From: an uncultured Candidatus Nemicrothrix sp.
Lineage (GTDB): Bacteria > Actinomycetota > Acidimicrobiia > Acidimicrobiales > MedAcidi-G1
DNA: 62,182 nt
Assembly (NCBI GenBank): GCA_964456295.1
Contig: CAYWBE010000001.1
Coordinates: 1-62,182, forward strand
Direction of reading: 5' to 3'
Shown one piece after another: positions 46,132 through 62,182 of the stretch; within the stretch, counting starts at the first letter, position 1, and each line of letters starts with the position of its first letter. The position numbers were made by a program, and so were the translations under genes. The notes beneath the pieces were generated by a model, which was not told where the DNA came from, made no database searches, and saw nothing but the letters and a program-made list of their open reading frames with translations.

Positions 46132-46174
46132 GTCCGCATACCGTATACGATAATGAACCAGGAATCGACACGGC

Positions 46175-46193: not shown

Positions 46194-46213
46194 ATCCTCC
46201 CGGATGGAGCCCC

Positions 46214-46438: not shown

Positions 46439-47700
46439 CAGGCCACCGCCAACTCGACCGCCGACACGCCGTGGACGAAGTTGGAGGCCAGGCGTTCCGC
46501 TGGGGCGCCGGGCGCCAGGACCACGTCACGGGCCAGCATCTCCTCCAGCAGGACCTGGACCTCCATGCGGGCCAGGAAGGCGCCGAGGCAGAAGTGCGGG
46601 CCGCCGCCGCCGAAGGCGAAGTGCGGGTTGTCCTGGCGGCCCACGTCGAACCGGTCCGGGTCGTCGAAGGCCTCGGGGTCCCGGTTGGCCCCGGCGTACC
46701 ACATGACCACCTTGTCGCCTTCGGCGATCCGGGTCCCCGCCAGCTCGACGTCGCGGCTGGCCGTGCGACGCATGTGCAGGATGGGGCTGGCCCACCGGAT
46801 GACCTCGTCCACCGCAGCGGGGACCAGCGACGTGTCCGCCTGGAGGCGCTCCCACTGGTCGGGATGCTCGGCGAAGGCCATGGCCCCGTGGATCATCGCC
46901 GTGCGGGTCGTCTCGTTGCCGGCGAACACCAGGAGCTGGAAGAAGTTGCGGTACTCGGCGGCGGTCAGGCGCTCGCCGTCGGCCTCGGCCTCCAGCAGGC
47001 CGGTCACCAGGTCGTCGCCCGGCTCGGCCATCCGCAACTGGCGCATCTTCTCCGCGTACTCGTACAGGGCGTGGCTGGCCGGGCTGTTGAAGGGCAGGAG
47101 CCGGGTCGGCGTGGCGTTGCCGTATGCGTCGTCGGGCAGCGTCGAACCCTCGCCGGTCCCCTCCACCAGGTAGTTGGTCAGCTCCACCATGTACTCGGCG
47201 TCCTCGGCCGGGACGCCGAGGATGGCCAGGATGACCCGGATGGGCAGCGGGGCGGCGACCTTCTCCACCCAGTCGCCCCCACCGTCGGCCACGTATCCCT
47301 CGACCAGCTCGGCGGCGATCCCGCGGGCCATCCCCTCCCACGTGCGGGTGGTGCGCGGCGTGAAGGCCTTCGACACCACGCGGCGAAGGCGGGTGTGGTC
47401 GGGGGCATCGGAGTCGATCAGCGACCGACGGGCCTCCAGTGCGTCGGCCTCCAGGTCCCACAGGTTGGTGTGGCCGATGGCCGACGAGAAGACGTCCGGG
47501 TTCTTGGACACCTCCCGGACGTCGGCGTGGCGGGTCACGGCCCAGAAGCCGCTTCGCTCGCCCTGGTCGCCGTAGGGGTGCCAGACCAGGCCGTCGACCT
47601 CCCGGATGGCGGCGAAGCCCTCGTGGGGGATGCCCTCCAGGTAGATCGACGGGCTGGCGATGTCGGCCGGGCTGGCCGGCCCCTTCGAGGTCTCCGCCAT
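46438..47700 (-). CDS. cytochrome P450 (no. 4), CYP125/124-like paralogue of no. 3
   Basis: The start is taken at ATG 47700 (MAETSKGP). FAGNETTRTA, DEVIRW, FGGGGPHFCLG. Confidence 0.9.
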   Translation of the reverse strand: MAETSKGPASPADIASPSIYLEGIPHEGFAAIREVDGLVWHPYGDQGERSGFWAVTRHADVREVSKNPDVFSSAIGHTNLWDLEADALEARRSLIDSDAPDHTRLRRVVSKAFTPRTTRTWEGMARGIAAELVEGYVADGGGDWVEKVAAPLPIRVILAILGVPAEDAEYMVELTNYLVEGTGEGSTLPDDAYGNATPTRLLPFNSPASHALYEYAEKMRQLRMAEPGDDLVTGLLEAEADGERLTAAEYRNFFQLLVFAGNETTRTAMIHGAMAFAEHPDQWERLQADTSLVPAAVDEVIRWASPILHMRRTASRDVELAGTRIAEGDKVVMWYAGANRDPEAFDDPDRFDVGRQDNPHFAFGGGGPHFCLGAFLARMEVQVLLEEMLARDVVLAPGAPAERLASNFVHGVSAVELAVA

Positions 47701-47735
47701 GGTGGTCCTCTCGTCCACGGAGCCGAGCCGGTGGC

Positions 47736-49094
47736 TCAGCTGAACTCCAGGTAGCGGGCCCGCTCCCAGTCGTTCACGTCGTCGGGGTCGGGGTTGTTCT
47801 CCGCCGCGTGGGCCTCCTCGACTCGGGCCAGGGAGGCGTAGCTGCGGGAGAACCCGTCTCCCAGCATCGACGCCAGGGCGCTGCCCTCGAACGCCTCGAT
47901 CGCCCCGGTCAGCGTGGTGGCCAGCGGCGTGCAGTCGCCGGGGTCGTCGTACATGTCGCCCTCGGACATGGGCGGCAGGGCCAGAGAGCGTTCGACCCCG
48001 TCGCACCCGGCGGCCAGGAGCCCGGCGATCAGCAGGTACGGGTTGGCGTCCGCTCCCGCGGCACGGAACTCCACCCGGTTGGCGGACGAGCCGGCCTCCA
48101 CGATGCACCGGGCCAACACCGACCGGTTGTCCAGGCCCCAGTGCACGTGGGTGGGGGCGAAGCTGTAGGGGCGAATCCGCCGGGGGCCGTTGGCCGTGGG
48201 GGCGCCCAGCAGGACGAGGGCCTCAGCGTGCTCGAGGATGCCAGCCACCCAGTGGCCCATGGGCTCGTTGGGGGCGCCGTCGCTGTCGGCGAAGGCGTTC
48301 GATCCGTCGGAGGCCCGCAGGCTGGTGTGGACGTGGAGGCCGGAGCCCGAATCCTCGGTGAAGGGCTTGGGCATGAAGGTGGCCCGCATCCCGTGCTGCT
48401 CGGCCACCTGCTTGACGACGGAGCGGTAGAGCACGAAGTCATCGGCGGCCCGCATGGCGTCGGTGGGCCCGGTGTTGACCTCGATCTGGCCCGGTCCGTA
48501 CTCCTGGTTGGACGACTCCACCTCGATGCCCGCCCCGGCCAGTCCGGCCCGCATGTCGGCCAGCACCACCTCCAGGTCTGGCGCGTCGGTCAGCGAGCTG
48601 TACTTGATGTACGAACGCACCGGAGTCCAGGCCCCGTCGTCGCCGACGGTGCACAGGTAGAACTCGGGCTCGGTGGCCACCACCGGGTCGACGCCGAGGA
48701 CCCGGCACCTCTCCACCTGGGCGGCCAGCAGGTCCCGGGGGGACAACTCGTGGGGGCCGGTGCCGTGCTCGTCGAGGCTGGAGCAGAAGACGAGGCCGTA
48801 GCCGGGCCGGTGGGTGAGGAGCCGGTGGGACTCCAGGTCGGGGACGATGCGGGTGTCGAGGAAGCCGCTGTCCATGTTCACCGTCGCGTGCTCGACGATG
48901 TCGTCGTCCATGCCCAGGATGTAGATGGCGTCGGCGATGGCCGCCCCGCCTTCGGCCACCTCGGCGAAGTAGCGGTCCACGGGGACCCTCTTGCCCCGCA
49001 GGTGGGCGAAGGTGTCGACCACCGCCACCTCGACGGTGTGGACGCCGGTCTCCTTGCACTTCGTGAGGAAGGTGTTGAGGTTCATCTGAGTCAT
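47736..49094 (-). CDS. glutamine synthetase-family gamma-glutamyl ligase (GS type I-like, PuuA/GlnA3-like)
   Basis: The start is taken at ATG 49094 (MTQMNLNTF). It has the beta-grasp N-terminal domain. SSNQEYGPGQIEVN, SGSGLHVHTSL and EFRAAGADANPYL are GS motifs. Confidence 0.87.
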   Translation of the reverse strand: MTQMNLNTFLTKCKETGVHTVEVAVVDTFAHLRGKRVPVDRYFAEVAEGGAAIADAIYILGMDDDIVEHATVNMDSGFLDTRIVPDLESHRLLTHRPGYGLVFCSSLDEHGTGPHELSPRDLLAAQVERCRVLGVDPVVATEPEFYLCTVGDDGAWTPVRSYIKYSSLTDAPDLEVVLADMRAGLAGAGIEVESSNQEYGPGQIEVNTGPTDAMRAADDFVLYRSVVKQVAEQHGMRATFMPKPFTEDSGSGLHVHTSLRASDGSNAFADSDGAPNEPMGHWVAGILEHAEALVLLGAPTANGPRRIRPYSFAPTHVHWGLDNRSVLARCIVEAGSSANRVEFRAAGADANPYLLIAGLLAAGCDGVERSLALPPMSEGDMYDDPGDCTPLATTLTGAIEAFEGSALASMLGDGFSRSYASLARVEEAHAAENNPDPDDVNDWERARYLEFS

Positions 49095-49173
49095 CTCTCT
49101 GCTCCCCGGGGCGTCGGCCCCGATCTGGCGGGTGGTCGGTGGGGCGGGTTCGTGGTTCGAATGGACTGGTCGA

Positions 49174-50160
49174 TCAGCCTGTGGGATCCAGGACGAGGCG
49201 GCTTCGCACGTCGCCGGCCCGGAGGCGCTCGTGGGCCCGTTGGGCCTCGGACAGGCCGAGGACCTCGACGGTGCCGACGACGTCCGGCTCCCGCCGGGCC
49301 AGACCGAGTAGCTCGTCCATCTGGGCCCGCGAGCCCCAGAAGCTGGACAGGAAGTGGGCCTCGTGGGGCACCGCGCCGAGGCCGAAGGGGATGCGTCCCC
49401 CGAACAGGCCCACGATGGCCACCAGGCCGCGGCGGCGGACCGACGAGGCGGCCAACGCCATCGTCGACTCGGCGCCGAGGAAGTCCAGCACCACGTCGGC
49501 GGTGCCCGGGTCGTCGTCCGGGCCGCACGAGGCGTGGGCACCGACCTCGAGCGCCGTGGCCTGCTTGGTCGGGTCGAGGTCGACGGCCACCACCTCTGCG
49601 TCGGTCAGGGCCCGCAGGTAGCGGATGGCGTACTGCCCGAGGCCACCGGCTCCGATGACCATGGCCCGGGGCGGTTCGCCGTGGCCGGCGGCCCGTTCCC
49701 GGAGGACGGGCAGCCCATGGTCGACGGCCCGGAAGGAGGTCAGGCCACCGCAGGCCAGGGGCGCCACGGCGAACGGGTCGAGGCCGTCCAGCGGGGAGAG
49801 GTAGTCCTCGGAGGGCACGGCCATCCGCTGGGCGTAGCCACCGTCGGCGAACAGGCCGGCCTCGGTGGCGTCCGGGCAGACCTGTTCGACGCCGTCCGCG
49901 CACTGGGCGCACGCCCGGCAGCCCCACGGGGCGTAGAGCATGACCGAACCGAGCCGGTCGTGGACGCCGGTCACCTCGTGGCCCAGCACCATTGGCAGCG
50001 GGCTGGGGAAGTCGCCGTCGACGACGTGCAGGTCGCTGTGGCACACCCCGCAGGCCGTCACCTCCAGCATCGTGCCGCCGTCGGCGACCACCGGCTCGGG
50101 GTGGTCGGTGGCGAGCCGCAGGTCGGCCCCCACCCCGTCACACACCACGGCACGCATCAT
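49174..50160 (-). CDS. zinc-dependent alcohol dehydrogenase (MDR family)
   Basis: 328 aa. GVCHSDLH, GHEVTGV, GAGGLGQYA. Confidence 0.88.
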   Translation of the reverse strand: MMRAVVCDGVGADLRLATDHPEPVVADGGTMLEVTACGVCHSDLHVVDGDFPSPLPMVLGHEVTGVHDRLGSVMLYAPWGCRACAQCADGVEQVCPDATEAGLFADGGYAQRMAVPSEDYLSPLDGLDPFAVAPLACGGLTSFRAVDHGLPVLRERAAGHGEPPRAMVIGAGGLGQYAIRYLRALTDAEVVAVDLDPTKQATALEVGAHASCGPDDDPGTADVVLDFLGAESTMALAASSVRRRGLVAIVGLFGGRIPFGLGAVPHEAHFLSSFWGSRAQMDELLGLARREPDVVGTVEVLGLSEAQRAHERLRAGDVRSRLVLDPTG

Positions 50161-50170
50161 GAGCCCCCCA

Positions 50171-51352
50171 TCAGTAGCTGCGCGGCATGCCCAGGACCTT
50201 CTCGCCGAGGTAGGTCAGGACCAGGTTGTTGCTGATCGGAGCGACCTTGTACAGGCGGGTCTCCCGGAGCTTCCGTTCGATGTCGTACTCCACGGCGAAG
50301 CCGAAGCCGCCGTGGGTGTCGAGCGCGGCGTTGCCGGCCGCCCACGAGGCCTCCGAGGCCAGCATCTTGGCCATGTTGGCCTCGGCGGCGCAGGACCGTT
50401 CGGCGTCGAACAGCTCGGCGGCCCGGTACCGCATGAGGTCGGCGGCCTGCAGGTCGGCGTAGGCCCGGGCCAGCGGGAACTGGACGCCCTGGTTGGCACC
50501 GATGGGGCGACCGAACACCGTCCGCTCCGAGGCGTAGGCCGAGGCCCGCTCCAGGAAGAACCGGCCGTCGCCGATGCACTCCGAGGCGATGAGGATCCTC
50601 TCGGCGTTCATCCCGTCGAGGACGTGGCGGAACCCCATGCCCTCGGTGCCGACGAGGGCATCGGCGGGCAGGACCAGGTCGTCGAAGAACACCTCGGTGG
50701 TGTTGTGGTTCATCATGGTGGGGATCGGGTTGATGGTCAGCCCGGGCGCCAGCCCACCGTCGTCGTCGCGCATCTCGACGAGGAAGACCGACAGGCCGTC
50801 GGTGTGGCGTTCGCACTCCTCGGCCGGCGTGGTCCGGGCCAGCAGCACCATCAGGTCGGAGTACAACGCTCGGCTGGTCCAGATCTTCTGGCCGTCGACC
50901 CGCCACGCGTCGCCGTCGCGCACGGCCCGGGTCCGGATGCTCCCGGTGTCGGAGCCGGCGGCCGGCTCGGTGACGCCGAACGCCTGGAGCCGTAGCTCGC
51001 CCGATGCGACGCGGGGCAGGTACTTCGACTTCTGCTCCTCGGAGCCGTGGCGGAGCACGGTGCCCATGACGTACATCTGGGCGTGGCAGGCCGCCGGATT
51101 GCCGCCACTGGCCGCGATCTCCTCGAGGACCACCGAGGCGCCGGTGAGGTCCAGGCCGCCACCGCCGTACTCCTCAGGGATCAGGGCGCCCAACCAGCCG
51201 TGGGCGGTCAGGTCGGCCACGAACTCCTCGGGATACCGATCGGGTTCGAGGCCCCGCCAGTACTCACAGCCGTACTTGTCGGCCAGTCGACGCACCTCGG
51301 TGCGGATGACGTCCAGGTCATCGCGGTCGGTGGGCTGGGCGCCGGCGATCAT
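50171..51352 (-). CDS. acyl-CoA dehydrogenase
   Basis: The start is taken at ATG 51352 (MIAGAQPTDRDD). VTEPAAGSDTGS and QKIWTSRA. 4-nt overlap with the GntR gene. Confidence 0.9.
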   Translation of the reverse strand: MIAGAQPTDRDDLDVIRTEVRRLADKYGCEYWRGLEPDRYPEEFVADLTAHGWLGALIPEEYGGGGLDLTGASVVLEEIAASGGNPAACHAQMYVMGTVLRHGSEEQKSKYLPRVASGELRLQAFGVTEPAAGSDTGSIRTRAVRDGDAWRVDGQKIWTSRALYSDLMVLLARTTPAEECERHTDGLSVFLVEMRDDDGGLAPGLTINPIPTMMNHNTTEVFFDDLVLPADALVGTEGMGFRHVLDGMNAERILIASECIGDGRFFLERASAYASERTVFGRPIGANQGVQFPLARAYADLQAADLMRYRAAELFDAERSCAAEANMAKMLASEASWAAGNAALDTHGGFGFAVEYDIERKLRETRLYKVAPISNNLVLTYLGEKVLGMPRSY

Positions 51353-52197
51353 CCGACACCCTCCCCGAGGTCGGCCTCGGGGTCGTCGTCCGAGTCGAAG
51401 AAGCCACGGGCGGCCAGCTCGGCGGCCGCCGCCTCGCCACTGGCCTGGAGATGGGCCTCCATGGCCCGACGTGCCTCTTCGACGTCGCCGGCGGCGATGG
51501 CGTCGAGGATGGCCGCGTGGTGCTCGACCGCGACGCGGTTCCATCCGTCGGCGAACTCGTAGTAGCTGGTGGGGACGGAGTGCTCGAGGTGGCGCAGGAG
51601 CCAGCGGGTCCGTCCCGGGGCGGCCAGGTTGATGAGGCGATGGAAGTCGTGGTTGAGCTGCTGGAGGTCGTCCGGGTCCAACGCACCGCCGTCGGACCCC
51701 GCGGCCAGGAAGCTGGCGTGGACGTCGCGGAGCTCGGCCAGGCCCTCGGCGTCGAGGCCCTCGGCGGCCAGGGCGGCGGCCCGTCCCGCCACCACGCCGA
51801 AGAGGGCGTAGTGGTCGACGATGTCCTCCCGTGACAGGCGGGCCACCGACGCCCCCCGGCGGGGAGTCAACTCGACGAGGCCCTCGCGGCTCAGGACGAC
51901 CAGCGCCTCCCGGATGGGGCTGCGGCTCACGTCGAGCGCCTCGCTGATCGCCTGCTGGTCGACCTTCTCGCCCGAGCGCAGGGTGCCGGTCAGGATCAAC
52001 TCGCGGACGTAGTCGACGACCTCCTCGCCCAGGACGCCCCGCCGTCTGGAAGCGGGTGTGCGAGCGGGGTACCGTGATGGACGGTCGACGTCGCCCCGCT
52101 CCACGCCTTCCTGGACGGTGGTGGGCTCCACGGGTCCTCTCGGTGTCACCAGGGGGCCGGTTGCCACCCTTCTCGCAACTTTGAATACATTATTCAT
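51349..52197 (-). CDS. GntR-family regulator (FCD subfamily); start uncertain
   Basis: wHTH QQAISEALDVSRSPIREALVVLSREGLV plus an FCD-like domain. 52197 is the maximal ATG. Its first codons (AAT AAT GTA TTC AAA) are AT-rich and overlap the palindrome, so an in-frame GTG 30-70 nt downstream (for example 52167) is more likely. Confidence 0.75.
   Translation of the reverse strand: MNNVFKVARRVATGPLVTPRGPVEPTTVQEGVERGDVDRPSRYPARTPASRRRGVLGEEVVDYVRELILTGTLRSGEKVDQQAISEALDVSRSPIREALVVLSREGLVELTPRRGASVARLSREDIVDHYALFGVVAGRAAALAAEGLDAEGLAELRDVHASFLAAGSDGGALDPDDLQQLNHDFHRLINLAAPGRTRWLLRHLEHSVPTSYYEFADGWNRVAVEHHAAILDAIAAGDVEEARRAMEAHLQASGEAAAAELAARGFFDSDDDPEADLGEGVG
52182..52196. promoter_or_regulatory. 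perfect palindrome TGAATA-cat-TATTCA in the divergent GntR / PuuD-like region
   Basis: A 6-3-6 inverted repeat inside the only AT-rich stretch of this intergenic region. It is a candidate GntR operator. Confidence 0.5.
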
Positions 52198-52272
52198 TTG
52201 ACGGCCGTCCCGCAAGATCTGGGGAGTCGGGGTTTCGAGGGAGCCGGACGCTCCCGGGGAGGACGAGGACCG

Positions 52273-52989
52273 ATGGGACGACCACTGATCGGGATCACCG
52301 GGCGACGCAAGCGCGGCGACCAGTTGGTGGGCAACCTCGACGTGCTGGCCCACATGCCGGTCGACCTCTACTACGCCGACTACGGCCGCGGGGTGCTGGA
52401 GGCCGGCGGCATCCCGGTCCACCTGCCCCTGGACGTCGACCCCACCGACCTCGTCCCCCGCCTCGACGGCGTGCTGCTGACCGGCGGCGCCGACGTCGAC
52501 CCGGCCCGCTACGGCCACGCCTCGACGACCGATGCCTTCCCCCCGGAGCCGTTCCGCGACGAACACGAATGTGCGGTCCTCGACGCCGCCTACGCCGACC
52601 GCCTCCCGGTGGCCGGCATCTGCCGCGGCCTCCAGGTCGTCAACGTCCACGCCGGCGGCACCCTCCACCAGGACGTCCCCAGCCACTCCGGCTTCGCCGA
52701 GCCGGTGGACACCGAGTGGCACCGGGTCGACTTCACCGCCGGCTCGGTACTGGGCGGGCTGTACGGCGAGGACCGCCCGGTCAACTCGCTCCACCACCAG
52801 ACGGTCGACGAACTGGGCGACGGGCTGGTCGTCACCGCCCGGGCCGAGGACGGCTCCGTCGAGGGGCTCGAGCACGCCGACCTGCCGATGGTGGCCGTCC
52901 AGTGGCACCCCGAGATGCTCCCCGGCCGAGCCGACGATCCGCTGTTCGCCTGGCTGGTGCGCCGGGCCGGCGGGTCAGCCGCCGCCTGA
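52273..52989 (+). CDS. gamma-glutamyl-gamma-aminobutyrate hydrolase family protein (PuuD-like, peptidase C26)
   Basis: The start is taken at ATG 52273 (MGRPLIGITGRR). GGADVDPARYG, GICRGLQVVN, SLHHQ, VQWHPE. Confidence 0.85.
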   Translation: MGRPLIGITGRRKRGDQLVGNLDVLAHMPVDLYYADYGRGVLEAGGIPVHLPLDVDPTDLVPRLDGVLLTGGADVDPARYGHASTTDAFPPEPFRDEHECAVLDAAYADRLPVAGICRGLQVVNVHAGGTLHQDVPSHSGFAEPVDTEWHRVDFTAGSVLGGLYGEDRPVNSLHHQTVDELGDGLVVTARAEDGSVEGLEHADLPMVAVQWHPEMLPGRADDPLFAWLVRRAGGSAAA

Positions 52990-54837
52990 CGTCCCCAGGT
53001 AGGCGGCCCGGACCGCCGGATGGGCCTGGACCTCGTCCGGCGTGCCCGTGGCGATCACCTGGCCGGCGTCCAGGCAGGTCACCCGGTCGCAGATGCCGGT
53101 GATGAAGTTCAGGTCGTGGTCGATGACCACCACCCCGGCGCCCACCAACCCGGCCATTCGCCGAACCTGGTCGACCATGGCCTCCGACTCGGCGTCGCTC
53201 ATCCCCGACGTCGGCTCGTCCAGCAGCAGGAACGACGGGGACATCGCCGCAGCGCGGGCCAGTTCCAGGCGCCGCGACGTCCCGTAGTCGAGCTCGCGGG
53301 CTCGACGGAACCGGACGTCCCACAGCCCGGCGGCCACCAAGAGGCCGTCCACGTCGGGCGGCGGGCGGTGCCGGCGGCTCGACGAGGCCACCAGTGCCGA
53401 CACCTCGACGTTCTCCCGCACGGTCAGCGACCCGAACAGCCGCAGGTTCTGGAAGGTCCGGACCAGGCCGCTGCGGGCGATGCGGTGCGACGGCGCCCCG
53501 GAGAGGTCGGTGCCGCCCAGGGCCACCCGCCCCGAGTCGGCGCCGACCAGGCCGGTGACCACGTTGAGCAGGGTGGTCTTCCCCGCCCCGTTGGGTCCGA
53601 TCACCCCGAGCACCTCATGGCGGCCCACCTCGAGGCCGGCCCCGTCCAACGCCCGAAACCCGCCGAAGGCCACCGTGGCGGCCTCCACCACCAGGACGTC
53701 GTCATCGTCGGGTGACACGACGCCCGGCACCGCGGGCACCGCCGCGTCACGACCCCGCCACCGCTGGAGGCGGGCGTGCAACCAACGGTCCAGGTCCCAG
53801 TCGTCGAGCAGTCCGTCGGGCCGCCAGACCATGAAGCCCAGCATGGCCACGCCGAGGAACACGGTCTTCAGGTTCTCGCGGAAGATCCAGTCCAGCGGGG
53901 CGTCGTCCAGGCCCAGGCCGAACAGCTCGAAGCCGTCCTGGCCCATGCGGCGGGCCAACTCCCGCCCGGCGGTGATGACGGCCACCCCGAGCAGCGCCCC
54001 GGTCACGCTTCGCCGGCCGCCCACGATGAGCATCACCAGGGTGACCAGCGTCAGGTTGAAGAAGAAGTCGCTGGGCAGGATCGAGCCCTTCTCGTACACC
54101 CGGAGGCCGGCGCCCACCGAGACCACCGAGACCGAGACCAGGAGGGCCACCATCTGCTGGACCAGCGGGTTCACCCCCATGGCCCGAGCCGCCAGGTCGT
54201 CCTCCCGGGCCGCCTGGGCCATGCGCCCACCGCGGCTCCGGGCGTAGAGGAGCGCCACCAGGATGGACCCGAGCAGGGCCAGGTAGAGCGGCGTCCGGGA
54301 GTCCAGCGCCCCACCGATCCGGAACGACAGGCCGGCCCGGTCGCCCCCGGTCAGGTCGGGCCAGTTCCGGGCCACCTCGTGGGTCACGAACAGGAGGGCC
54401 AGGGTGATGACCGTGGCCGACACGGCACCTGACTCGGCACCCGATCGGGCCAGGCCGATGCCCACCACGGCACCGACCACCAGCACCACGGCCACGGCGA
54501 CGGCCAGGCCGACCCACGGGCCGAGGTGGACGTCGGTCAGGCCGAAGGGAGCGTCGGAGACCCGCTTGGCCTTCTCGACCGGGTCGATGGCCATCAGAGC
54601 GAAGGCGTAGCCGGCCACTGCACCGAAGCCCATGTGGCCGAACGACAGGATCCCGGTGTTGCCAACGTAGACCTGTAGTCCGAGCACCAGCACGGCGTCG
54701 ATCAGGGCGAAGGTGACCAGCCGCTCCTGGCCGCCCAGGGCACCCTGGTAGAAGAGTCCGGCACCGACGAACAGGCCGAAAAGGACCAGGCCGGCGGCCA
54801 CCGGCACGAATACGTCGCGTCGTAGGTCGGGGAACAT
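52975..54837 (-). CDS. fused branched-chain-type ABC permease (LivM-like) and ATP-binding (LivG-like) protein
   Basis: The start is taken at ATG 54837 (MFPDLRRDVF). The first ~340 aa are multi-TM. They are followed by GPNGAGKTTLLN, YGTSRRLELARAA and LLLDEPTSGM. The track ORF extension to 55575 overlaps livH. Confidence 0.85.
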   Translation of the reverse strand: MFPDLRRDVFVPVAAGLVLFGLFVGAGLFYQGALGGQERLVTFALIDAVLVLGLQVYVGNTGILSFGHMGFGAVAGYAFALMAIDPVEKAKRVSDAPFGLTDVHLGPWVGLAVAVAVVLVVGAVVGIGLARSGAESGAVSATVITLALLFVTHEVARNWPDLTGGDRAGLSFRIGGALDSRTPLYLALLGSILVALLYARSRGGRMAQAAREDDLAARAMGVNPLVQQMVALLVSVSVVSVGAGLRVYEKGSILPSDFFFNLTLVTLVMLIVGGRRSVTGALLGVAVITAGRELARRMGQDGFELFGLGLDDAPLDWIFRENLKTVFLGVAMLGFMVWRPDGLLDDWDLDRWLHARLQRWRGRDAAVPAVPGVVSPDDDDVLVVEAATVAFGGFRALDGAGLEVGRHEVLGVIGPNGAGKTTLLNVVTGLVGADSGRVALGGTDLSGAPSHRIARSGLVRTFQNLRLFGSLTVRENVEVSALVASSSRRHRPPPDVDGLLVAAGLWDVRFRRARELDYGTSRRLELARAAAMSPSFLLLDEPTSGMSDAESEAMVDQVRRMAGLVGAGVVVIDHDLNFITGICDRVTCLDAGQVIATGTPDEVQAHPAVRAAYLGTSGGG

Positions 54838-54863
54838 CGGCGACCTCCTCCTCGCGCTCGGCC

Positions 54864-55751
54864 CTAGACCCGTTCGGCATGGTCGACGGAGACCAGGCCC
54901 TGGGGACGGAAGATGAACAGGAGGGCGATCAGCAGGAAGACCACGCCCTCGGTGAGGCTGGCCACCGAGTCGGGCAGGCGGGAGCGGAGCACCACCTCGG
55001 CCATCCCGAGGGCGAACCCGCCCAGCACCGCCCCGCGCAGGCTGCCCAGCCCGCCGATGAGCGCGGCGAGCACGCCCTTGAGCATGGGGTCGATCCCCGC
55101 GCTGGGGACCGTGCTCCCGGCCCGCATGAGCCAGAACACGCTGGCGATGCCGGCCAGCAGGCCCGACAGGGCGAAGGCCCCCCGGATCACCGAGTCGGAG
55201 CGGATGCCCATGAGGCGGGCCGTGTCGAAGTCGGCCGCCGCGGCCCGCAGCGACAGGCCGAAGGTGGTGCGCTGGAGGACCATCGACGTCCCGACCAGGG
55301 TCAGCAGGGTGACGGCGATGACCACGGTGTCGAAGACCTCGATCCGCAACGACCCCACGGCGTACGTGTTGGTGACCCAGCCCGGCCGGGGGAACGTCTT
55401 CACCGACGCCGAGACGTAGAGCAGGAAGATGGCGAAGACCACGAAGTGGACGCCGAACGAGGTCAGCAGCAGGGTGAACTGGTCGGCCCCCCGGACCCGA
55501 CTGAACGCCACCCGCTCGATGACCAGCGAGGTCAGGACGGCCACCACGAGGATCAGGGGCACGGTCAGGTACCACGACCAGCCGGCGTCCAAAGCCCAGA
55601 ACGTCGCGTAGCCCGACACGGTGATCATCTCGCCGTGGGCGAAGTTGAGCAGGTGCATGACCCCGAACACCACGGCCACGCCGAGGGCCAGCAGGGCGTA
55701 GATGCTGCCCCGACCCAGGCCGTCGACCAGGTTCTGCAGGAGTTCCACCAT
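54864..55751 (-). CDS. livH: branched-chain-type ABC transporter permease (LivH-like)
   Basis: The start is taken at ATG 55751 (MVELLQNLVDGLGRGSIYALLALG), the typical LivH N-terminus. 295 aa and multi-TM. Confidence 0.87.
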   Translation of the reverse strand: MVELLQNLVDGLGRGSIYALLALGVAVVFGVMHLLNFAHGEMITVSGYATFWALDAGWSWYLTVPLILVVAVLTSLVIERVAFSRVRGADQFTLLLTSFGVHFVVFAIFLLYVSASVKTFPRPGWVTNTYAVGSLRIEVFDTVVIAVTLLTLVGTSMVLQRTTFGLSLRAAAADFDTARLMGIRSDSVIRGAFALSGLLAGIASVFWLMRAGSTVPSAGIDPMLKGVLAALIGGLGSLRGAVLGGFALGMAEVVLRSRLPDSVASLTEGVVFLLIALLFIFRPQGLVSVDHAERV

Positions 55752-55786
55752 GGTCGGTTCTCCGGATGTCGGACCCGCGTACGGGG

Positions 55787-56488
55787 TCAGCTCCCCACGA
55801 ACAGGTCGAAGAGGCGTTCGTCGGCCCTCAGGTCGGCGCCGGTTCCCTCGGCCACCACGCCGCCGCTTCGCAGCACGTAGGCCCGATCGGCCACCTCCAG
55901 CATGCGGGTGGCGTTCTGCTCGACCACCAGCAGGGTGCGCCCCTGGGCCCGCAGCGTCTCGACCAGCTCGAAGACCACGTCGACGAGGATCGGCGCCAGG
56001 CCGAGCGAGGGCTCGTCCATCATCAACAACCGGGGTCGGGCCATGAGCGCCCGCCCGATGGCCAGCTGCTGGGCCTCGCCGCCCGACAGGTAGCCGGCCG
56101 CCGTGGTCCACTTGGACCGCAACACCGGGAACAACCCGGCCATCTCGTCGAGCAGGGCGCCCCGCTCGCCGGCCGGGACGGTCACCCCACCGACCCGGAG
56201 GTTCTCCTCCACGGTGAGGTCGGTGAAGATCCGTCGGTGCTCGGGCACCAGGGCCAGCCCGGCCCGGAGGAGGTCCTCCGGCGGCCGACCGGTGACGTCG
56301 TCGCCGTCGAGGGTGACGCTGCCCGACCGCGGCGCCAGCAGGCCGGCGATGGTGTTGAGCAGCGTGGTCTTGCCCGCGCCGTTGGGCCCGATGAGGCCGA
56401 CGACCTCACCGGACCCGACGTGCAGGTCTGCGTCCCGAAGTGCCTGGATCTCACCGTAGGCGGTCGTGAGACCCGACACCTCGAGCAC
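55787..56488 (-). CDS. livF: branched-chain-type ABC transporter ATP-binding protein (LivF-like)
   Basis: 233 aa. GPNGAGKTTLLN, LSGGEAQQLAIGRAL, LLMMDEPSLGL. Confidence 0.9.
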   Translation of the reverse strand: MLEVSGLTTAYGEIQALRDADLHVGSGEVVGLIGPNGAGKTTLLNTIAGLLAPRSGSVTLDGDDVTGRPPEDLLRAGLALVPEHRRIFTDLTVEENLRVGGVTVPAGERGALLDEMAGLFPVLRSKWTTAAGYLSGGEAQQLAIGRALMARPRLLMMDEPSLGLAPILVDVVFELVETLRAQGRTLLVVEQNATRMLEVADRAYVLRSGGVVAEGTGADLRADERLFDLFVGS

Positions 56489-56494
56489 GGGCGG

Positions 56495-58960
56495 TCAGCC
56501 GCCGATGGTGGCGACGAGGGTGTCGGCGCCGTCGACGATGCGGGCGATCGGGACCGCCTTGGGCGGGATGCCGTTGGTGCCCGCGTAGGTGATCTCTCCC
56601 GACAGGCCGGCGAAGCCCGAGATCTGCGCCACGGCCTGGCCGATGCCGGCCGGGTCGTCACAGCCACAGTCCAGGATCCCCTGGATGCCCAGGAACAACG
56701 AGTCCACGTAGAGCGGCATGAACCCGCGGCTCTCCAACGCCTCGCCCTTCGCCGCCTCGTAGCTGGCCAGCAACTGGTCGTTGCGGTCGCCGGCGACGAT
56801 GTTCACGTGCGGCGTGTGGGCGATGCCCTCGTTGTTGGCCTCCACCTGGATGCCCGTGGCGTCCATGGCGTCGGTCCCGATGTAGGTCAGCCCGTCCAGG
56901 CCCTGGCCCTCGAGCTGGCCACGCAACGCCGTGACCTGGAAGGCCAACGCCGCCGAGAACACCACCTCGTCGTTCTGCGAGATCTGCGCGATCTCGTTCA
57001 CCTGCGCCGAGAAGTCGGTGTCAGCCGCCCACACGTACGTCTGGGTCGACACCACCTCGCCACCGCCGGCCTCGAACGCCGCGATGAACGCATCCGGGTT
57101 CACCCCGGTGTAGGGGATCCCCTCGCCCTCGGTGAACACGATCGCCCGCGAGATGCCCTGGTCGAGCGCCCACCGGGCCGCCGCCGAGGACTGCCCATGG
57201 TCGTCGAACGTCACCAGGTACGAGTTGATCGACGCATCGGCCAACGTCGGCTCCGTCGACGCCGCCACGAACATCGGCACCCCGCCACCCGTGGTCTGCA
57301 GGATCGGCAGGGCGAAGTCCGCGAACGGCGGACCGATCAGGAACTGGGCACCCCAGTCCAGCAACTCCTGGGCCGCCAACGCCGCGTCATCGCCGACCTC
57401 GGCGACACGGACCTCCACCGGACGACCATCGATGCCGCCCGTGCAGTTGATCAACTCGGCCACGTACGGCACCAGCTTCGAACCCGGGATGTCCACGAAC
57501 CCCACCACGTCGGAGAAGTCCATCGCCATCCCCACACGGATCGGATCACCCGACGGCGCATCCGCACACGCCGACAGATCCGCCGCGACCACCGCATCCA
57601 CATCCAGACCCGACGGGGAAACCGGAGCAGCGGTCACACCGCCCTCCCAGTCGGTGCCGATGGTGGCGACGAGGGTGTCGGCGCCGTCGACGATGCGGGC
57701 GATCGGGACCGCCTTGGGCGGGATGCCGTTGGTGCCCGCGTAGGTGATCTCTCCCGACAGGCCGGCGAAGCCCGAGATCTGCGCCACGGCCTGGCCGATG
57801 CCGGCCGGGTCGTCACAGCCACAGTCCAGGATCCCCTGGATGCCCAGGAACAACGAGTCCACGTAGAGCGGCATGAACCCGCGGCTCTCCAACGCCTCGC
57901 CCTTCGCCGCCTCGTAGCTGGCCAGCAACTGGTCGTTGCGGTCGCCGGCGACGATGTTCACGTGCGGCGTGTGGGCGATGCCCTCGTTGTTGGCCTCCAC
58001 CTGGATGCCCGTGGCGTCCATGGCGTCGGTCCCGATGTAGGTCAGCCCGTCCAGGCCCTGGCCCTCGAGCTGGCCACGCAACGCCGTGACCTGGAAGGCC
58101 AACGCCGCCGAGAACACCACCTCGTCGTTCTGCGAGATCTGCGCGATCTCGTTCACCTGCGCCGAGAAGTCGGTGTCAGCCGCCCACACGTACGTCTGGG
58201 TCGACACCACCTCGCCACCGCCGGCCTCGAACGCCGCGATGAACGCATCCGGGTTCACCCCGGTGTAGGGGATCCCCTCGCCCTCGGTGAACACGATCGC
58301 CCGCGAGATGCCCTGGTCGAGCGCCCACCGGGCCGCCGCCGAGGACTGCCCATGGTCGTCGAACGTCACCAGGTACGAGTTGATCGACGCATCGGCCAAC
58401 GTCGGCTCCGTCGACGCCGCCACGAACATCGGCACCCCGCCACCCGTGGTCTGCAGGATCGGCAGGGCGAAGTCCGCGAACGGCGGACCGATCAGGAACT
58501 GGGCACCCCAGTCCAGCAACTCCTGGGCCGCCAACGCCGCGTCATCGCCGACCTCGGCGACACGGACCTCCACCGGACGACCATCGATGCCGCCCGTGCA
58601 GTTGATCAACTCGGCCACGTACGGCACCAGCTTCGAACCCGGGATGTCCACGAACCCCACCACGTCGGAGAAGTCCATCGCCATCCCCACACGGATCGGA
58701 TCACCCGACGGCGCATCCGCACACGCCGACAGATCCGCCGCGACCACCGCATCCACATCCAGACCCGACGGGGAAACCGGAGCAGCGGCGTCGGATCCGC
58801 CGTCGTCGGCGGCCGTGGTGGCCGGAGCGGCGGTGGTCGCCGGCGCGGCGGTGGTGGCAGGTGCCGCGTCGGAACCGCCGTCGTCGCTGCCGCAGGCCGA
58901 GGCCACCAGGGCCAGGACCGACAGGACGGAAAAGAGGACAATCGTGGACTTCTTCTTCAT
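56495..58960 (-). CDS. Liv/amide-type ABC substrate-binding lipoprotein with two identical tandem type-I PBP domains
   Basis: 821 aa. Signal plus lipobox MKKKSTIVLFSVLSVLALVASAC, then an (APATTA)x3 linker. A 377-aa block (PVSPSGLDVD...ADTLVATIG) then occurs twice, joined by the linker TDWEGGV. Confidence 0.85.
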   Translation of the reverse strand: MKKKSTIVLFSVLSVLALVASACGSDDGGSDAAPATTAAPATTAAPATTAADDGGSDAAAPVSPSGLDVDAVVAADLSACADAPSGDPIRVGMAMDFSDVVGFVDIPGSKLVPYVAELINCTGGIDGRPVEVRVAEVGDDAALAAQELLDWGAQFLIGPPFADFALPILQTTGGGVPMFVAASTEPTLADASINSYLVTFDDHGQSSAAARWALDQGISRAIVFTEGEGIPYTGVNPDAFIAAFEAGGGEVVSTQTYVWAADTDFSAQVNEIAQISQNDEVVFSAALAFQVTALRGQLEGQGLDGLTYIGTDAMDATGIQVEANNEGIAHTPHVNIVAGDRNDQLLASYEAAKGEALESRGFMPLYVDSLFLGIQGILDCGCDDPAGIGQAVAQISGFAGLSGEITYAGTNGIPPKAVPIARIVDGADTLVATIGTDWEGGVTAAPVSPSGLDVDAVVAADLSACADAPSGDPIRVGMAMDFSDVVGFVDIPGSKLVPYVAELINCTGGIDGRPVEVRVAEVGDDAALAAQELLDWGAQFLIGPPFADFALPILQTTGGGVPMFVAASTEPTLADASINSYLVTFDDHGQSSAAARWALDQGISRAIVFTEGEGIPYTGVNPDAFIAAFEAGGGEVVSTQTYVWAADTDFSAQVNEIAQISQNDEVVFSAALAFQVTALRGQLEGQGLDGLTYIGTDAMDATGIQVEANNEGIAHTPHVNIVAGDRNDQLLASYEAAKGEALESRGFMPLYVDSLFLGIQGILDCGCDDPAGIGQAVAQISGFAGLSGEITYAGTNGIPPKAVPIARIVDGADTLVATIGG
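56501..57633. repeat. tandem direct repeat, copy 1 (1133 bp, identical to 57656-58788)
   Basis: The offset is 1155 nt (385 codons). I checked both boundaries base by base. The internal six-frame ORFs 56931/58086 and 57132/58287 have identical sequences. Confidence 0.97.
57656..58788. repeat. tandem direct repeat, copy 2 (1133 bp)
   Basis: Same evidence as copy 1. The unique 22-nt junction tcacaccgccctcccagtcggt lies at 57634-57655. Confidence 0.97.
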
Positions 58961-59011
58961 TTGGTGACACCCCTCGGGTCGTTTAGCCGGGTTCCCACCC
59001 GGACGATGGAA

Positions 59012-59040
59012 TATTTACATACAAAATCTAAATTTACCAA
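59012..59040 (-). promoter_or_regulatory. sigma-70-like promoter for the liv-type operon: TTGGTA-17 nt-TAAATA
   Basis: Read on the minus strand within the AT-rich stretch 59008-59050. A 5' UTR hairpin (ccgggtgggaacccgg) and a gagggg SD follow before the ATG at 58960. Confidence 0.4.
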
Positions 59041-59063
59041 GACCTGATTCCCCGGCCCAGCCT

Positions 59064-59930
59064 TCACCACTTCGGGGGGCGAATCCCCCGGAACTCCCAG
59101 TCGCCGCCGAGGGCCGTGGACAGGACCTCCTCGGACTCCGTCGGCTGGGCCCCGCAGTCGTCGCGAATGGGCGTCGGCCCGGTGGTGACGGTGTTGGTCA
59201 GCGCGCCCAGGCCCTCGACCTCGACGGTCACCACGTCGCCCGGCTGCACGGGCCGCGAGTTGGCTGGCGTGCCCGAGAAGACCATGTCGCCGGGCAGCAG
59301 GGTGATGGTGCGGGCCAGGTCGGCCACCAGGTAGTGCATGTCCCAGGTCATCTCGTCGGTGGTGCCGTCCTGGGCCACCTCGCCGTTGACCAGCGTCCGG
59401 ATGCCCTTGCCCCGGAAGTCCCAGCCCTCGACCAGGCCGGGCCCCACCGGGCAGAGGGTGTCGGACCCCTTCACCCGGAGCATCGACCCGGCGTCGGTGT
59501 CGCGGAAGTCGTGCAGGCCGTAGTCGTTGCCGATGGAGTAGCCGGCGATGTAGTCGCCCGCCTCGTCGGGGCTGACGTTGCGGCACGGCCGCCCGATGAC
59601 GATGACGATCTCGCCCTCGTAGTTCAGCCACCGGCAGCGTTCCGGGCGGACCACGTCGCCCCGGTGTCCGTTCAGCGACGACGTGGGCTTGTGGAAGTAG
59701 GTCGGGGCGGCGGGCAACGAGACCTGGAATTCCTCGACCCGGCTCACGTGGTTGAGGTGGACGCACAGGATCTTGGACGGCTCGCTGGGCGGGAGGTGGA
59801 TGGCCTCGGCCTCGGCGATCCGCCGCCCGTCGCCAGCCACCAGCTCCTCGCCGTCGACGGCCACCGGGGTGGGAGACCCGTCCAGCAGGATCCGCCTCGT
59901 CTCCCGCGTGAGGCCTGCGTCGGTACCCAT
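59064..59930 (-). CDS. fumarylacetoacetate hydrolase family protein
   Basis: The start is taken at ATG 59930 (MGTDAGL). LNYEGEIVIVIG and GDMVFSGTPAN are FAH-fold motifs. Confidence 0.85.
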   Translation of the reverse strand: MGTDAGLTRETRRILLDGSPTPVAVDGEELVAGDGRRIAEAEAIHLPPSEPSKILCVHLNHVSRVEEFQVSLPAAPTYFHKPTSSLNGHRGDVVRPERCRWLNYEGEIVIVIGRPCRNVSPDEAGDYIAGYSIGNDYGLHDFRDTDAGSMLRVKGSDTLCPVGPGLVEGWDFRGKGIRTLVNGEVAQDGTTDEMTWDMHYLVADLARTITLLPGDMVFSGTPANSRPVQPGDVVTVEVEGLGALTNTVTTGPTPIRDDCGAQPTESEEVLSTALGGDWEFRGIRPPKW

Positions 59931-59994
59931 CACTGCTCCCCGTCGACCGGTCCCGCTTCCCTCCGCGGGTCCCGGCATCTTGGCATGGAAATCG

Positions 59995-60006
59995 TTAGGG
60001 ACCAAA
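59995..60006 (+). promoter_or_regulatory. 12-mer TTAGGGACCAAA 16 nt upstream of the ADC-like gene start
   Basis: Identical to the minus-strand site at 37141-37152. It is followed by tga-TACGCT-ggcttcc-ATG, a leaderless-type -10. Confidence 0.5.
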
Positions 60007-60022
60007 TGATACGCTGGCTTCC

Positions 60023-60835
60023 ATGGCCGACCTCCAGGGCTTCACCTTCCCCCGCACCCCCACCGGCGCCTCCTCGCTGGTCCCCGCCCCGCCGTGGCAC
60101 TACTCGGGCGACATGCTCACCATCGAGTACCGCACCGATCCGGACGCCGTGGCCGAACTGCTGCCCGCCCCGCTCTCCCCCGCCGAGGACGACCCGGGCG
60201 CGGTGGCCGTCATCTGGGCCGACTGGCAGTCCTGCTCCGACGACTTCAACGAGGTGCTCGACCCCGACCGACTCCAGTACAAGGAGTGCTTCGTCGTGGT
60301 CCGCTGCTCCTACGAGGGCGAGACGTACAGCCGCTGCGCCTACATCTGGGTCGACAAGGACTACGCCATGCTCCGCGGCCACGTGCAGGGCTACCCCAAG
60401 AAGTTCGGCGACATCTGGATGACCCGACCCGTCACCGTCGGGAAGGCCGGCCCCCGGCTCGAGCCCGGAGGCCGCTTTGGAGCCACCTGCTCGGCCTACG
60501 GCCGCCGCCTGGTCGAGGCCGAGTTCACCATCACCGGAGACAGCGAGCACACCGGCTTCGTGAACGCCCTGCCCATGCTCCACCACCGCCTGCTCCCGGC
60601 GATCGAGGCCGACGGCACCGACTCGCTCAACGAGTTGGTCACCATGCGGGGTTATGACGCCGAGGTCGGCCCGGCCTACACCGGCGACGTGGACCTCCGG
60701 GTCTTCGAGTCCCCGACCGAGGAACTCCACCGACTCGCCCCCCGCGAGATGATCGCCGGCTACTGGCGCAGCGTCGGCGTGTCGTGGAACGGCGGCACCA
60801 CGCTGGCCGACCTCCGGACGGACCCGGGGTCGTGA
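60023..60835 (+). CDS. acetoacetate decarboxylase (ADC) family protein
   Basis: 270 aa. SSLVPAPPWHYSGDMLTIEYRTDPDAV...YKECFVVV matches the ADC-fold N-terminal pattern (MppR/Sbi00515-like family). Confidence 0.78.
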   Translation: MADLQGFTFPRTPTGASSLVPAPPWHYSGDMLTIEYRTDPDAVAELLPAPLSPAEDDPGAVAVIWADWQSCSDDFNEVLDPDRLQYKECFVVVRCSYEGETYSRCAYIWVDKDYAMLRGHVQGYPKKFGDIWMTRPVTVGKAGPRLEPGGRFGATCSAYGRRLVEAEFTITGDSEHTGFVNALPMLHHRLLPAIEADGTDSLNELVTMRGYDAEVGPAYTGDVDLRVFESPTEELHRLAPREMIAGYWRSVGVSWNGGTTLADLRTDPGS

Positions 60836-62115
60836 GCACCGGCACCACGGCACCCCTCACCCGCCACCCCTGGACGCCCGACGCCGACGACGGCCACGCC
60901 GACCTGGCGTCGCACGACACCTGGGTGCACGGCACCCCCTACGCCACCCTCCAGCGAATGCGCGACGAGGATCCGGTGGCCTGGGTCGACGAGGCGGACG
61001 GCTCGGGCTTCTGGGCCGTGACCCGCTACGCCGACGTGGTCGAGTTGAACCGCCGCTGGGAGGACTTCACGTCGTACCGGGGCATCCGGCTCGAGGAGAT
61101 GGACGCCGAGGAGACCGAGGCCCGGCGAACCCTCATGGAGCTCGACCCGCCCGACCACACCCGACTGCGCCGCCTCGTCAACCGCGGCTTCACCCGCCGG
61201 ACCGTCGAGTCCTACGAGGACCCCATCCGGGAGCTCACCGCCGGCATCCTCGACGAGGCCCTAGCCCTCGGCGAATTCGACTTCGTGAGCGAGGTGGCCC
61301 GGGTCCTACCCATGCGGATGCTGGGCCGCCTGCTCGGCGTACCCGACGACGACGCCGCCCAGCTGGTCGACTGGGGCGACCAACTGCTGTCCAACTCCGA
61401 CCCCGAGTACACCGACCACGTCGTGGACCGGGTCGACACCGACGAGTTCCGCCTCATCCCCTTCCGCAGCCCGGCCGGCCTCGAGGTGTTCCGGTACGCC
61501 CAGGAGGCGGCCGCCGAACGACGGGGCTGCCCCCACGACGACGTGATCACCCGGCTACTCGCCCCGACCACCGACGGCACGCCGCTGACCGACCTGGAGT
61601 TCAACAACTTCTTCGCCCTGCTCGTGGCGGCCGGCAACGACACCACCCGCTACTCGCTGACCGAGGGACTTCGGGCGCTGGTCGACCATCCCGAGCAGAT
61701 GCAGGCGCTGCGGGACGACCCGTCGATCATGGACACCGCGGTGGAGGAGGTCCTGCGGTGGACCACGGTCACCACGCACTTCCGCCGCACCGCCACCAGC
61801 GACCAGGAACTCCACGGCCGCACCATCCGCGAGGGCGACAAGGTCGTCCTGTGGTGGGTCGGAGCCGACTACGACGAGCGAAAGTTCGCCGACCCCTACC
61901 GGTTCGACCTGACGCGGGACCCCAACGACCACGTGGCCTTCGGCCGCAACGGCCCGCACCTGTGCCTCGGCGCCTGGCTGGCCCGCATGGAGATCCGCAT
62001 CACCCTGCAGGAACTGCTGGCCCGCACCACCGACATCGAGGTGGTCCACGAGTCCGACCGGCTGCGCTCCAACCTGATCAGCGGCACGAAGCACCTGACC
62101 GTCCGGGTCGCCTGA
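60832..62115 (+). CDS. cytochrome P450 (no. 5), CYP125/124-like
   Basis: The start is set at GTG 60832, a GTGA overlap with the ADC-like stop. AAGNDTTRYS, EEVLRW, FGRNGPHLCLG. Confidence 0.9.
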   Translation: MSTGTTAPLTRHPWTPDADDGHADLASHDTWVHGTPYATLQRMRDEDPVAWVDEADGSGFWAVTRYADVVELNRRWEDFTSYRGIRLEEMDAEETEARRTLMELDPPDHTRLRRLVNRGFTRRTVESYEDPIRELTAGILDEALALGEFDFVSEVARVLPMRMLGRLLGVPDDDAAQLVDWGDQLLSNSDPEYTDHVVDRVDTDEFRLIPFRSPAGLEVFRYAQEAAAERRGCPHDDVITRLLAPTTDGTPLTDLEFNNFFALLVAAGNDTTRYSLTEGLRALVDHPEQMQALRDDPSIMDTAVEEVLRWTTVTTHFRRTATSDQELHGRTIREGDKVVLWWVGADYDERKFADPYRFDLTRDPNDHVAFGRNGPHLCLGAWLARMEIRITLQELLARTTDIEVVHESDRLRSNLISGTKHLTVRVA

Positions 62116-62182
62116 CCCGGCCGAGGGGCACCTGACCGTCCGGGTCGCCTGACCCGGCCGAGGGGCACCTGACCGACCGGGT
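62091..62182. repeat. 37-bp tandem repeat (about 2.5 copies) that duplicates the 3' end of the P450 gene; runs off the window
   Basis: Unit gcacctgaccgtccgggtcgcctgacccggccgaggg at 62091-62127 and 62128-62164. A third, diverging partial copy starts at 62165. Confidence 0.9.
62103..62120 (+). terminator. 7-bp stem hairpin overlapping the P450 no. 5 stop codon
   Basis: ccgggtc-gcct-gacccgg. It recurs in the next repeat unit. There is no T-tract. Confidence 0.35.

Follow-up and report, generated by a model that had tools for sequence, protein, structure and literature searches.

The 62,182-nucleotide (nt) stretch analyzed here, from a contig of an uncultured Candidatus Nemicrothrix sp. (the window; G+C content of 70%, no N), carries on its minus strand a gene for a solute-binding lipoprotein that contains the same ligand-binding domain twice. 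This tandem gene is the first of a four-gene operon for a LivFHM(G)-type ATP-binding cassette (ABC) importer and consists of a single open reading frame (ORF) of 821 amino acids (aa) at positions 56495-58960, within which nt 56501-57633 and nt 57656-58788 are identical without a mismatch over all 1133 nt. The very next base at either end breaks the exact run, the offset from start to start is 1155 nt, or 385 codons, and the 22 nt that separate the copies (57634-57655, TCACACCGCCCTCCCAGTCGGT) form a unique junction. Given the identity of two 1.1-kb stretches, a chance origin is impossible, and no other long perfect direct repeat was found in the 62-kb window, where the 1133-nt pair stands alone. 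The base-perfect in-frame repeat had been reported in an earlier reading of the letters (the sequence-only reading), and re-comparison of all positions reproduced it, offset included.

The encoded protein begins with MKKKSTIVLFSVLSVLALVASAC and continues with three APATTA hexapeptides, a domain, the linker TDWEGGV(T), the identical domain, and a single glycine before the stop codon; the peptide across the junction reads ...LVATIGTDWEGGVTAAPVSPSGLDVDAVVAADLSACADAPSGDPIR. Its lipobox fits the PROSITE-type pattern, with cysteine at residue 23 and lysine or arginine within the first seven residues (K2 to K4), and the same pattern is present in the orthologs and single-domain relatives checked (P0001, P0011, P0012, P0014, P0024, P0025, and P0027). 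On these sequence criteria, the tandem protein is a predicted bacterial lipoprotein. Two matches to Peripla_BP_6 (PF13458) were obtained in the 821-aa protein (E = 1.3e-50; 173.4 bits against a gathering cut-off of 31.7), the best of which spans profile positions 1 to 342 of 343. Thus, the reading frame, the domain order, and the lipoprotein signal described in the sequence-only reading were all borne out. When a single repeat unit was modeled with AlphaFold from an alignment with 28 single-domain relatives, it reached a predicted local distance difference test score (pLDDT) of 90.4 and a predicted template modeling score (pTM) of 0.89, and a Foldseek search with this model returned the LivJ/LivK-type proteins 4gnr, 3td9, and 4n0q as nearest structures (template modeling scores of 0.73 to 0.84, E values of 1e-19 to 1e-21, sequence identity of 17 to 21%). 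The structural neighbors bind Leu/Ile/Val, aromatic acids, urea, or gamma-aminobutyric acid, with the binders of aromatic acids and urea ranking close behind the LivJ/LivK-type proteins. Judged by this model, each half is predicted to be a complete and self-sufficient type I (cluster B) binding protein of the LivJ-like kind. A sequence search of the PDB with the domain gave weak LivJ-like matches only (E values of 1e-8 to 1e-9), from which no ligand could be assigned.

Table 1. Parts of the tandem gene and its operon, with their positions in the window
Feature	Position (nt)	Strand	Basis
Gene for 821-aa tandem (double-domain) LivJ-like solute-binding lipoprotein	56495..58960	-	ORF; two PF13458 matches; 19 contigs
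Signal peptide and lipobox, residues 1-23 (LSVLALVASAC, ending in Cys23)	58892..58960	-	Pattern check
Low-complexity Ala/Pro/Thr spacer from lipid anchor to domain 1 (GSDDGGSDA, APATTA x3, ADDGGSDA)	58789..58891	-	Translation
Repeat copy, domain 1 (N-terminal, membrane-proximal)	57656..58788	-	Identity to 56501-57633; AlphaFold model
Junction, inter-domain linker TDWEGGV(T)	57634..57655	-	Homologous to junctions of L021, L017, L014, L018, and L085
Repeat copy, domain 2 (C-terminal, distal)	56501..57633	-	Repeat comparison
Last Gly codon and stop codon	56495..56500	-	ORF; ATPase gene begins 6 nt downstream
AT-rich upstream intergenic region with ribosome-binding site GAGGGG; presumed operon promoter/operator	58961..59063	-	Sequence
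LivF-like ABC ATPase, 233 aa	55787..56488	-	PF00005, E = 7.7e-31; synteny in all orthologous loci
LivH-like permease (BPD_transp_2), 295 aa	54864..55751	-	PF02653, E = 4.5e-35, on the L001 copy (L001:13210-14097)
LivM-like permease fused to LivG-like ATPase, 620 aa	52975..54837	-	PF02653, PF00005, and PF12399 on the L001 copy (L001:14124-15986)

The exact 821-aa protein was found on 19 metagenome contigs from several samples. In the five contigs retrieved (L001 to L005) the gene is identical at the DNA level, and their flanks are 99.9 to 100% identical to the window, which indicates one nearly clonal population. Beyond this population, a protein search returned about 20 double-domain homologs of 725 to 828 aa at 80 to 90% identity, along with numerous single-domain relatives about 450 aa long. 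In the double-domain homologs inspected, the halves are self-identical even though the proteins differ among themselves, the exception being the chimeric entry P0018. Syntenic loci were fetched for nine further lineages (L006, L008, L011, L014, L017, L018, L021, L022, and L085), which stem from several studies and assemblers (TARA, JGI, and others). All nine have a full lipoprotein signal upstream, and the database entries of 725 aa and 756 aa are late start calls. Including the window, tandem orthologs are therefore present in at least ten diverged lineages of marine Acidimicrobiia.

In all lineages, the gene holds an exact internal repeat of 1093 to 1136 nt at an offset of 1143 to 1179 nt. 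Comparing half against half over about 11.2 kb in ten lineages gave two differences in total, or 0 to 1 per lineage: T/C in L012, 24 nt from the right repeat boundary, and C/A in L022, 34 nt from the left one. Between lineages, the repeat unit is only 78 to 90% identical at the nucleotide level and the adjacent ATPase gene 73 to 86% (with the exception of the near-identical pair L014/L015), while the domain shows a synonymous divergence (dS) of 0.30 to 1.21 and a ratio of nonsynonymous to synonymous divergence (dN/dS) of 0.03 to 0.13. The domain is under strong purifying selection, and the halves within one genome resemble each other about three orders of magnitude more closely than they resemble their counterparts in other genomes, synonymous sites included. 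A further trace is a 9-nt insertion encoding Val-Ser-Pro, private to the window lineage and located 5' of both domains, as would be expected if one half had been copied onto the other.

The junction itself is informative on the age of the duplication. Its DNA can be aligned between the window and L021, L085, L017, L014, and L018, and it encodes (D/G)WEGG in six of six cases. Within this class, the glycine and alanine codons differ at synonymous sites, as in ACC GAC TGG GAG GGC GGT GTG versus GCC GAC TGG GAG GGT GGA GTG, and the lineages that carry it are separated by dS values of 0.45 to 0.97. Since an independent duplication would not remake the same junction, the likeness indicates that the duplication is older than the split of the six DWEGG lineages, a dating with which their conserved synteny agrees. 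Moreover, the junction changes in the manner of a translated linker, an argument for actual synthesis of the fusion protein. Across lineages the linker measures about 8 to 20 residues and falls into three classes that cannot be aligned with one another, xDWEGGx, SGTTVT...AAAP, and TGSSGGGATAT. The second (SGTTVT/SGSNVS) is found in L006, L008, and L022, which lie at dS values of 0.30 to 0.57 and share the likeness of the junction within the class, and the third in L011. L006, L008, L022, and L011 together make up a second group of lineages beside the DWEGG group, and the same pattern holds among them.

As to where the junction came from, the sequence-only reading had argued that it is not the mark of a simple head-to-tail duplication, because it matches neither outer flank. 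This argument did not hold, since in an old duplication the 22 nt may be what divergence has left of one end of the 1155-nt unit. A significant resemblance between the junction and the spacer ahead of domain 1 was obtained for L006 (p < 0.0005); the similarity is borderline in L008 and L018 (p of about 0.05), no more than suggestive in the window (ADDGGSD against TDWEGGV, p = 0.13), and not significant in the DWEGG lineages other than the window (L018 being borderline). The 22-nt junction could descend from the spacer by divergence, or it could be filler DNA. When JGI metagenomes were scanned with the DWEGG junction pattern, 20 matches were obtained, of which five were true junctions, and no contig had two junctions; arrays of three or more units thus find no support.

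Comparison with related genomes, which the sequence-only reading had proposed, was carried out and placed the tandem form among single-domain relatives, which are the norm. In a neighbor-joining tree of 58 domain sequences, all tandem lineages fall into one clade. Of the 61 species-representative genomes with a relative, a tandem assembly is found in L022 only; L023, L024, and L042 belong to the tandem clade, yet are single or chimeric as assembled, and the remaining ones are single-domain proteins of 60 to 85% identity in the same operon position. These include many complete chromosomes of metagenome-assembled genomes (MAGs), from Candidatus Poriferisodalis, Poriferisocius, and Aldehydirespirator. 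The single domain is both the common form and the ancestral one. The family is small, as a search with one domain against 1.84 billion cluster representatives returned 31 representatives at E < 1e-30.

The sequence-only reading had called a free lipoprotein with two full domains unusual, and rare it is, but other double Peripla_BP_6 proteins exist. We found five, of which P0181 is a 780-aa lipoprotein with halves 95.6% identical, while P0162, P0170, P0175, and P0201 have an N-terminal membrane anchor and halves 34 to 48% identical. Their identity to the window domain is only 24 to 27%, which indicates that they arose independently and that tandem duplication of entire LivJ-type proteins has happened repeatedly. 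The double-domain architecture is thus rare but recurrent. By sequence comparison, halves would usually diverge in the long term without homogenization, and it is the homogenized state that appears to stand out here. In the literature that could be searched, no lipoprotein with LivJ-type domains in tandem was found to be described.

Taken together, we consider it probable that the gene encodes a double-headed lipoprotein serving the downstream importer, which arose by an old duplication, whose halves have been homogenized ever since, and whose two-domain form is kept by selection. In this scenario, part of the spacer and a whole domain would have been duplicated in tandem and in frame in an ancestor of the marine Acidimicrobiia clade, placing two complete LivJ-like domains on one lipid anchor, where they would serve the LivF/LivH/LivM-G-type importer encoded directly downstream. 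The 1.1-kb halves would since have been homogenized repeatedly by RecA-type homologous recombination, through intragenic gene conversion, through unequal sister-strand exchange via three-copy and two-copy states, or through both. The junction and the outer flanks, having lost homology, would diverge freely, and the edges of the unit would drop out of the conversion tracts. Long direct repeats at such close range should be prone to deletion, and once reduced to one copy the gene has no way to recover the junction; that the two-domain form persists in many lineages suggests that it is favored by selection. In a cell without a periplasm, each binding protein must be tethered. The likeliest benefit would then be more binding sites per exported, lipidated polypeptide and a higher capture of substrate; with identical heads, the effect would be on capture rate, not on substrate range. 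Type I importers work with a 10- to 200-fold excess of binding protein, which is required for activity (PMC12094219).

A bolder extension, which we regard as rather doubtful, would see the locus in a recombination equilibrium, where the repeats are homogenized and deleted at a high rate and selection maintains at least two copies over a dS of about 1. Wild populations would then be polymorphic for one, two, or more heads, the gene would be a contingency-type locus through which oligotrophic marine Acidimicrobiia could switch the dosage of nutrient capture fast and reversibly, and this would be the first case of intragenic, whole-protein, long-lasting concerted evolution in prokaryotes.

Several observations weigh against an old, continuously homogenized two-domain gene, and the first of them concern the assemblies. 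All tandem contigs bear short-read-style names (scaffold_, NODE_, k141_), on which names alone their short-read origin was judged, and have coverages of 4 to 27x. On general reasoning about short-read graph assemblers, a 1.1-kb repeat exceeds the length of short reads and their inserts, and in the assembly graph it becomes a single edge with a loop through the junction; the assembler would go round this loop once and merge small bubbles. The copy number is accordingly best read as at least two, and sparse differences in the interior of the halves would be erased, depending on the assembler. Both half-differences that we did find lie within about 35 nt of a repeat boundary, the only place where reads can phase them. 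In addition, two MAG contigs look like one-copy versions of tandem loci from the same population: L023 equals L017 minus exactly one 1149-nt unit at 99.7% identity, and L024 equals L020 minus exactly one 1149-nt unit at 99.4 to 99.95% identity. These are either real deletion variants or collapsed assemblies. P0018, moreover, is a clear inter-strain chimera. It is thus possible, although we lean against it, that the details of a real array are driven by assembly, so that low-level differences of up to about 1% were merged, that there are more than two units, or that one-copy and multicopy cells are mixed. What this possibility leaves untouched is the main finding, because reads that join the end of the unit to its start via the unique junction must exist, which makes the tandem arrangement real, and because that junction evolves as coding sequence. 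If the halves were more than a few percent apart, they would be assembled as separate sequences, and no lineage shows this. Contigs with three units were found neither among the homologs nor among the contigs of the junction scan, and none had two junctions, though assemblers would not yield one anyway. An assembler stutter, against which the sequence-only reading had already held up the unique in-frame junction, is ruled out by the same junction being kept across lineages: the exact protein is on 19 contigs, and diverged lineages retain the junction as coding sequence.

The remaining points against this reading concern the number of origins and the structure of the whole protein. The three linker classes permit two or three independent duplications, and bootstrap support for tandem monophyly is only 21% (60% for the DWEGG group, 100% for the group of L006, L008, L022, and L011). 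Together with the recurrence of tandem duplication in unrelated Peripla_BP_6 proteins, this could suggest that each lineage duplicated its domain recently and on its own, with no long-term concerted evolution at all. We consider this improbable, since the DWEGG junction is homologous at the DNA level across dS values of 0.45 to 0.97, as is that of the SGTTVT/SGSNVS class across its own three lineages; recurrent duplication could account for no more than two or three founding events and would leave the identity of halves within each lineage unexplained. A single origin appears the simplest reading of the sequences, with two or three origins possible, and whatever their number, identical halves in every lineage require continuing homogenization. 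As for structure, the AlphaFold check suggested by the sequence-only reading succeeded for the single unit but not for the full-length protein, which, from an alignment of 11 tandem orthologs, reached a pLDDT of 37 and a pTM of 0.27 and so permits no statement on the relative placement or the contacts of the two domains.

Much less credible is a duplication so recent and so private to this genome or strain that its halves have had no time to diverge. The zero differences over 1133 nt and the near-clonal population of carriers would fit such an event, and the sequence-only reading had offered it alongside gene conversion. Of this pair, only conversion is sustained by the orthologs: at least nine other lineages whose units are 10 to 21% different share the architecture, the operon position, and self-identical halves, and five of them share the homologous (D/G)WEGG junction. 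Nor is the idea of a recent duplication rescued by the limits of the assemblies, because halves that had diverged freely would differ by 10 to 20% and would assemble separately. We hold it to be even less plausible that the gene is in transit toward a circularly permuted binding protein, as the sequence-only reading had proposed when it described the tandem as the intermediate of permutation by duplication. Formally, that model does begin with a tandem duplicate, and a permuted-looking flavin amine oxidase is encoded in the same window (28394-29788). Against this, both domains are complete, dN/dS is low (about 0.1), the tandem state is conserved across lineages, and the permuted protein is a member of an unrelated family. 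On inspection, the fetched proteins with two matched stretches proved to be full tandems, and no permuted relative was noticed among 61 close homologs, 61 genome loci, and the 150 best representatives, where collinearity was not explicitly tested.

The old and homogenized tandem that we favor can be set beside several known systems. Each half resembles LivJ/LivK-type proteins (Peripla_BP_6, cluster B) in matching PF13458 from end to end and in its predicted two-lobe fold, but there are two complete domains per lipoprotein here, not one, and identity to solved structures is 17 to 21%. Similarly, the gene heads an operon with LivF-, LivH-, and LivM/G-like components, as in LivHMGF-type importers, except that LivM and LivG are fused here. 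P0181, P0162, P0170, P0175, and P0201 are comparable in having two full binding domains in about 730 to 780 aa behind an N-terminal anchor; P0181 is also alike as a lipoprotein with near-identical halves, whereas the other four differ by the divergence of theirs. The GlnPQ transporters, whose binding domains belong to a different fold class (type II, PF00497), likewise hold two binding domains in series on one polypeptide at the membrane near the translocator. In GlnPQ from Lactococcus and Streptococcus, the tandem domains, covalently linked to the permease and unlike in specificity and affinity, provide more binding sites close to the translocator and compete with each other for docking (PMC8025302). 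In contrast, the domains described here are identical and are lipid-anchored on a separate protein; the tandem ORF has its stop codon at 56495-56497 and is followed by the ATPase gene, with the permeases encoded in other ORFs.

With respect to the evolutionary pattern, 0 to 1 half-difference per lineage set against dS values of 0.3 to 1.2 between lineages fits concerted evolution as it is defined. Its long-lasting form has been described as very rare in prokaryotes, with a survey listing 26 genes, among them tufA/tufB and mtrA, all of them separate paralogs and none an ABC transporter or binding protein; gene conversion is its accepted cause (PMC6053082). As in tufA/tufB-type duplicates, the copies within a genome are closer to each other than to their orthologs, at synonymous sites too and over deep divergence. 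Unlike those, the copies here are domains of one ORF, in direct orientation and 22 to 48 nt apart, an arrangement that should also favor deletion. Long, DNA-identical, in-frame tandem repeats of variable number are also a feature of surface proteins of the alpha C/Rib and SasG/Aap types. The tandem gene shares with them the nearly 100% identical in-frame repeats in a surface protein and the occurrence of one-copy and two-copy versions in different assemblies, but its unit is a whole 385-residue ligand-binding protein rather than a small spacer domain, and only two copies have been seen.

Should the arrangement prove true on long reads, it would represent a new kind of transporter, in which a lipid-anchored receptor bears a pair of identical heads, and would offer a natural test of how the number of tethered sites affects uptake, for which GlnPQ is unsuitable because its domains differ. 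It would also be a rare, intragenic instance of long-lasting concerted evolution in prokaryotes. With repeats so close together, frequent deletion is expected, and wild populations could therefore be used to weigh mutation, conversion, deletion, and selection quantitatively against one another. A more practical implication is a warning that the copy number of domains in proteomes derived from metagenomes and MAGs can be wrong, as illustrated by the one-domain L023 and L024 and by the N-truncated gene calls of 725 and 756 aa.

Other database versions of the gene are damaged by assembly as well: P0018 joins two lineages and has unlike halves, and P0021 has one domain and a frameshift. P0022 bears both PF13458 and the ABC ATPase domain PF00005, suggestive of read-through, and in L076 a frameshift leads into the ATPase gene. 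A different combination was observed in L042 (about 2000-4131 of JAZADL010000131.1) and in P0023, which represents 86 member sequences. Here, a BMP-family domain (PF02608) is joined to a LivJ-like domain via a ...ATTAAPAMSGLD... spacer, an arrangement that is either a second, hetero-tandem type of binding lipoprotein or an artifact of assembly through shared APATTA spacer DNA of low complexity.

The permuted-looking protein at 28394-29788 on the plus strand is a 464-aa secreted flavin amine oxidase that matches PF01593 (E = 1.2e-62) in two stretches. Residues 140 to 461 match profile positions 1 to 363 of 443, and an N-terminal segment (about residues 40 to 125, ...RWRADPWARGAYSY...FFAGEATD...) resembles the C-terminal end of the family and sits before the GxGxxG start of the Rossmann fold. 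By its sequence, it appears to be a circular permutant, as the sequence-only reading had stated; it is, however, an oxidase and not a binding protein.

Upstream of the tandem gene, positions 58961-59063 form an AT-rich island in this 70% G+C genome, with repeated GTAAAT motifs (ttggtaaatttagattttgtatgtaaatattcc), which may be a promoter and an operator for the nearby GntR/FCD regulator. A scan of the region 5' of the gene for the sigma-70 consensus gave no match, and Rfam, promoter, and terminator scans around the gene returned nothing meaningful. Two terminator-like matches were discarded, as they are one sequence found in both repeat copies on the noncoding strand. Also discarded were long ORFs on the plus strand and in other frames within the repeat (e.g., 55766-59047), which are unsupported and a usual by-product of a coding region with 70% G+C.

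The L001 flank that holds the LivH-like gene is 99.95% identical to the window. The genes near the operon encode P450s, acyl-coenzyme A and aldehyde dehydrogenases, members of the FAA-hydrolase and acetoacetate decarboxylase (ADC) families, a glutamine-synthetase-like protein, a peptidase C26, and the GntR/FCD regulator, which hints at the catabolism of some small organic compound. The conserved neighborhood (about 45000-62182 in the window; L001 to L020) also includes NicX-like and amidase genes, and its peptidase C26 is of the gamma-glutamyl hydrolase type. We take this neighborhood to resemble amine catabolic clusters of the gamma-glutamylation type, and such a likeness could serve as a hint to the substrate of the transporter. 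At about 60816-61046, L001 to L003 (from the same strain) have a short segment at the boundary between the ADC-family and P450 genes replaced or shortened, a difference that alters the gene calls, with a P450 of 338 versus 427 aa and a 266-aa ORF without Pfam match versus the ADC-family gene.

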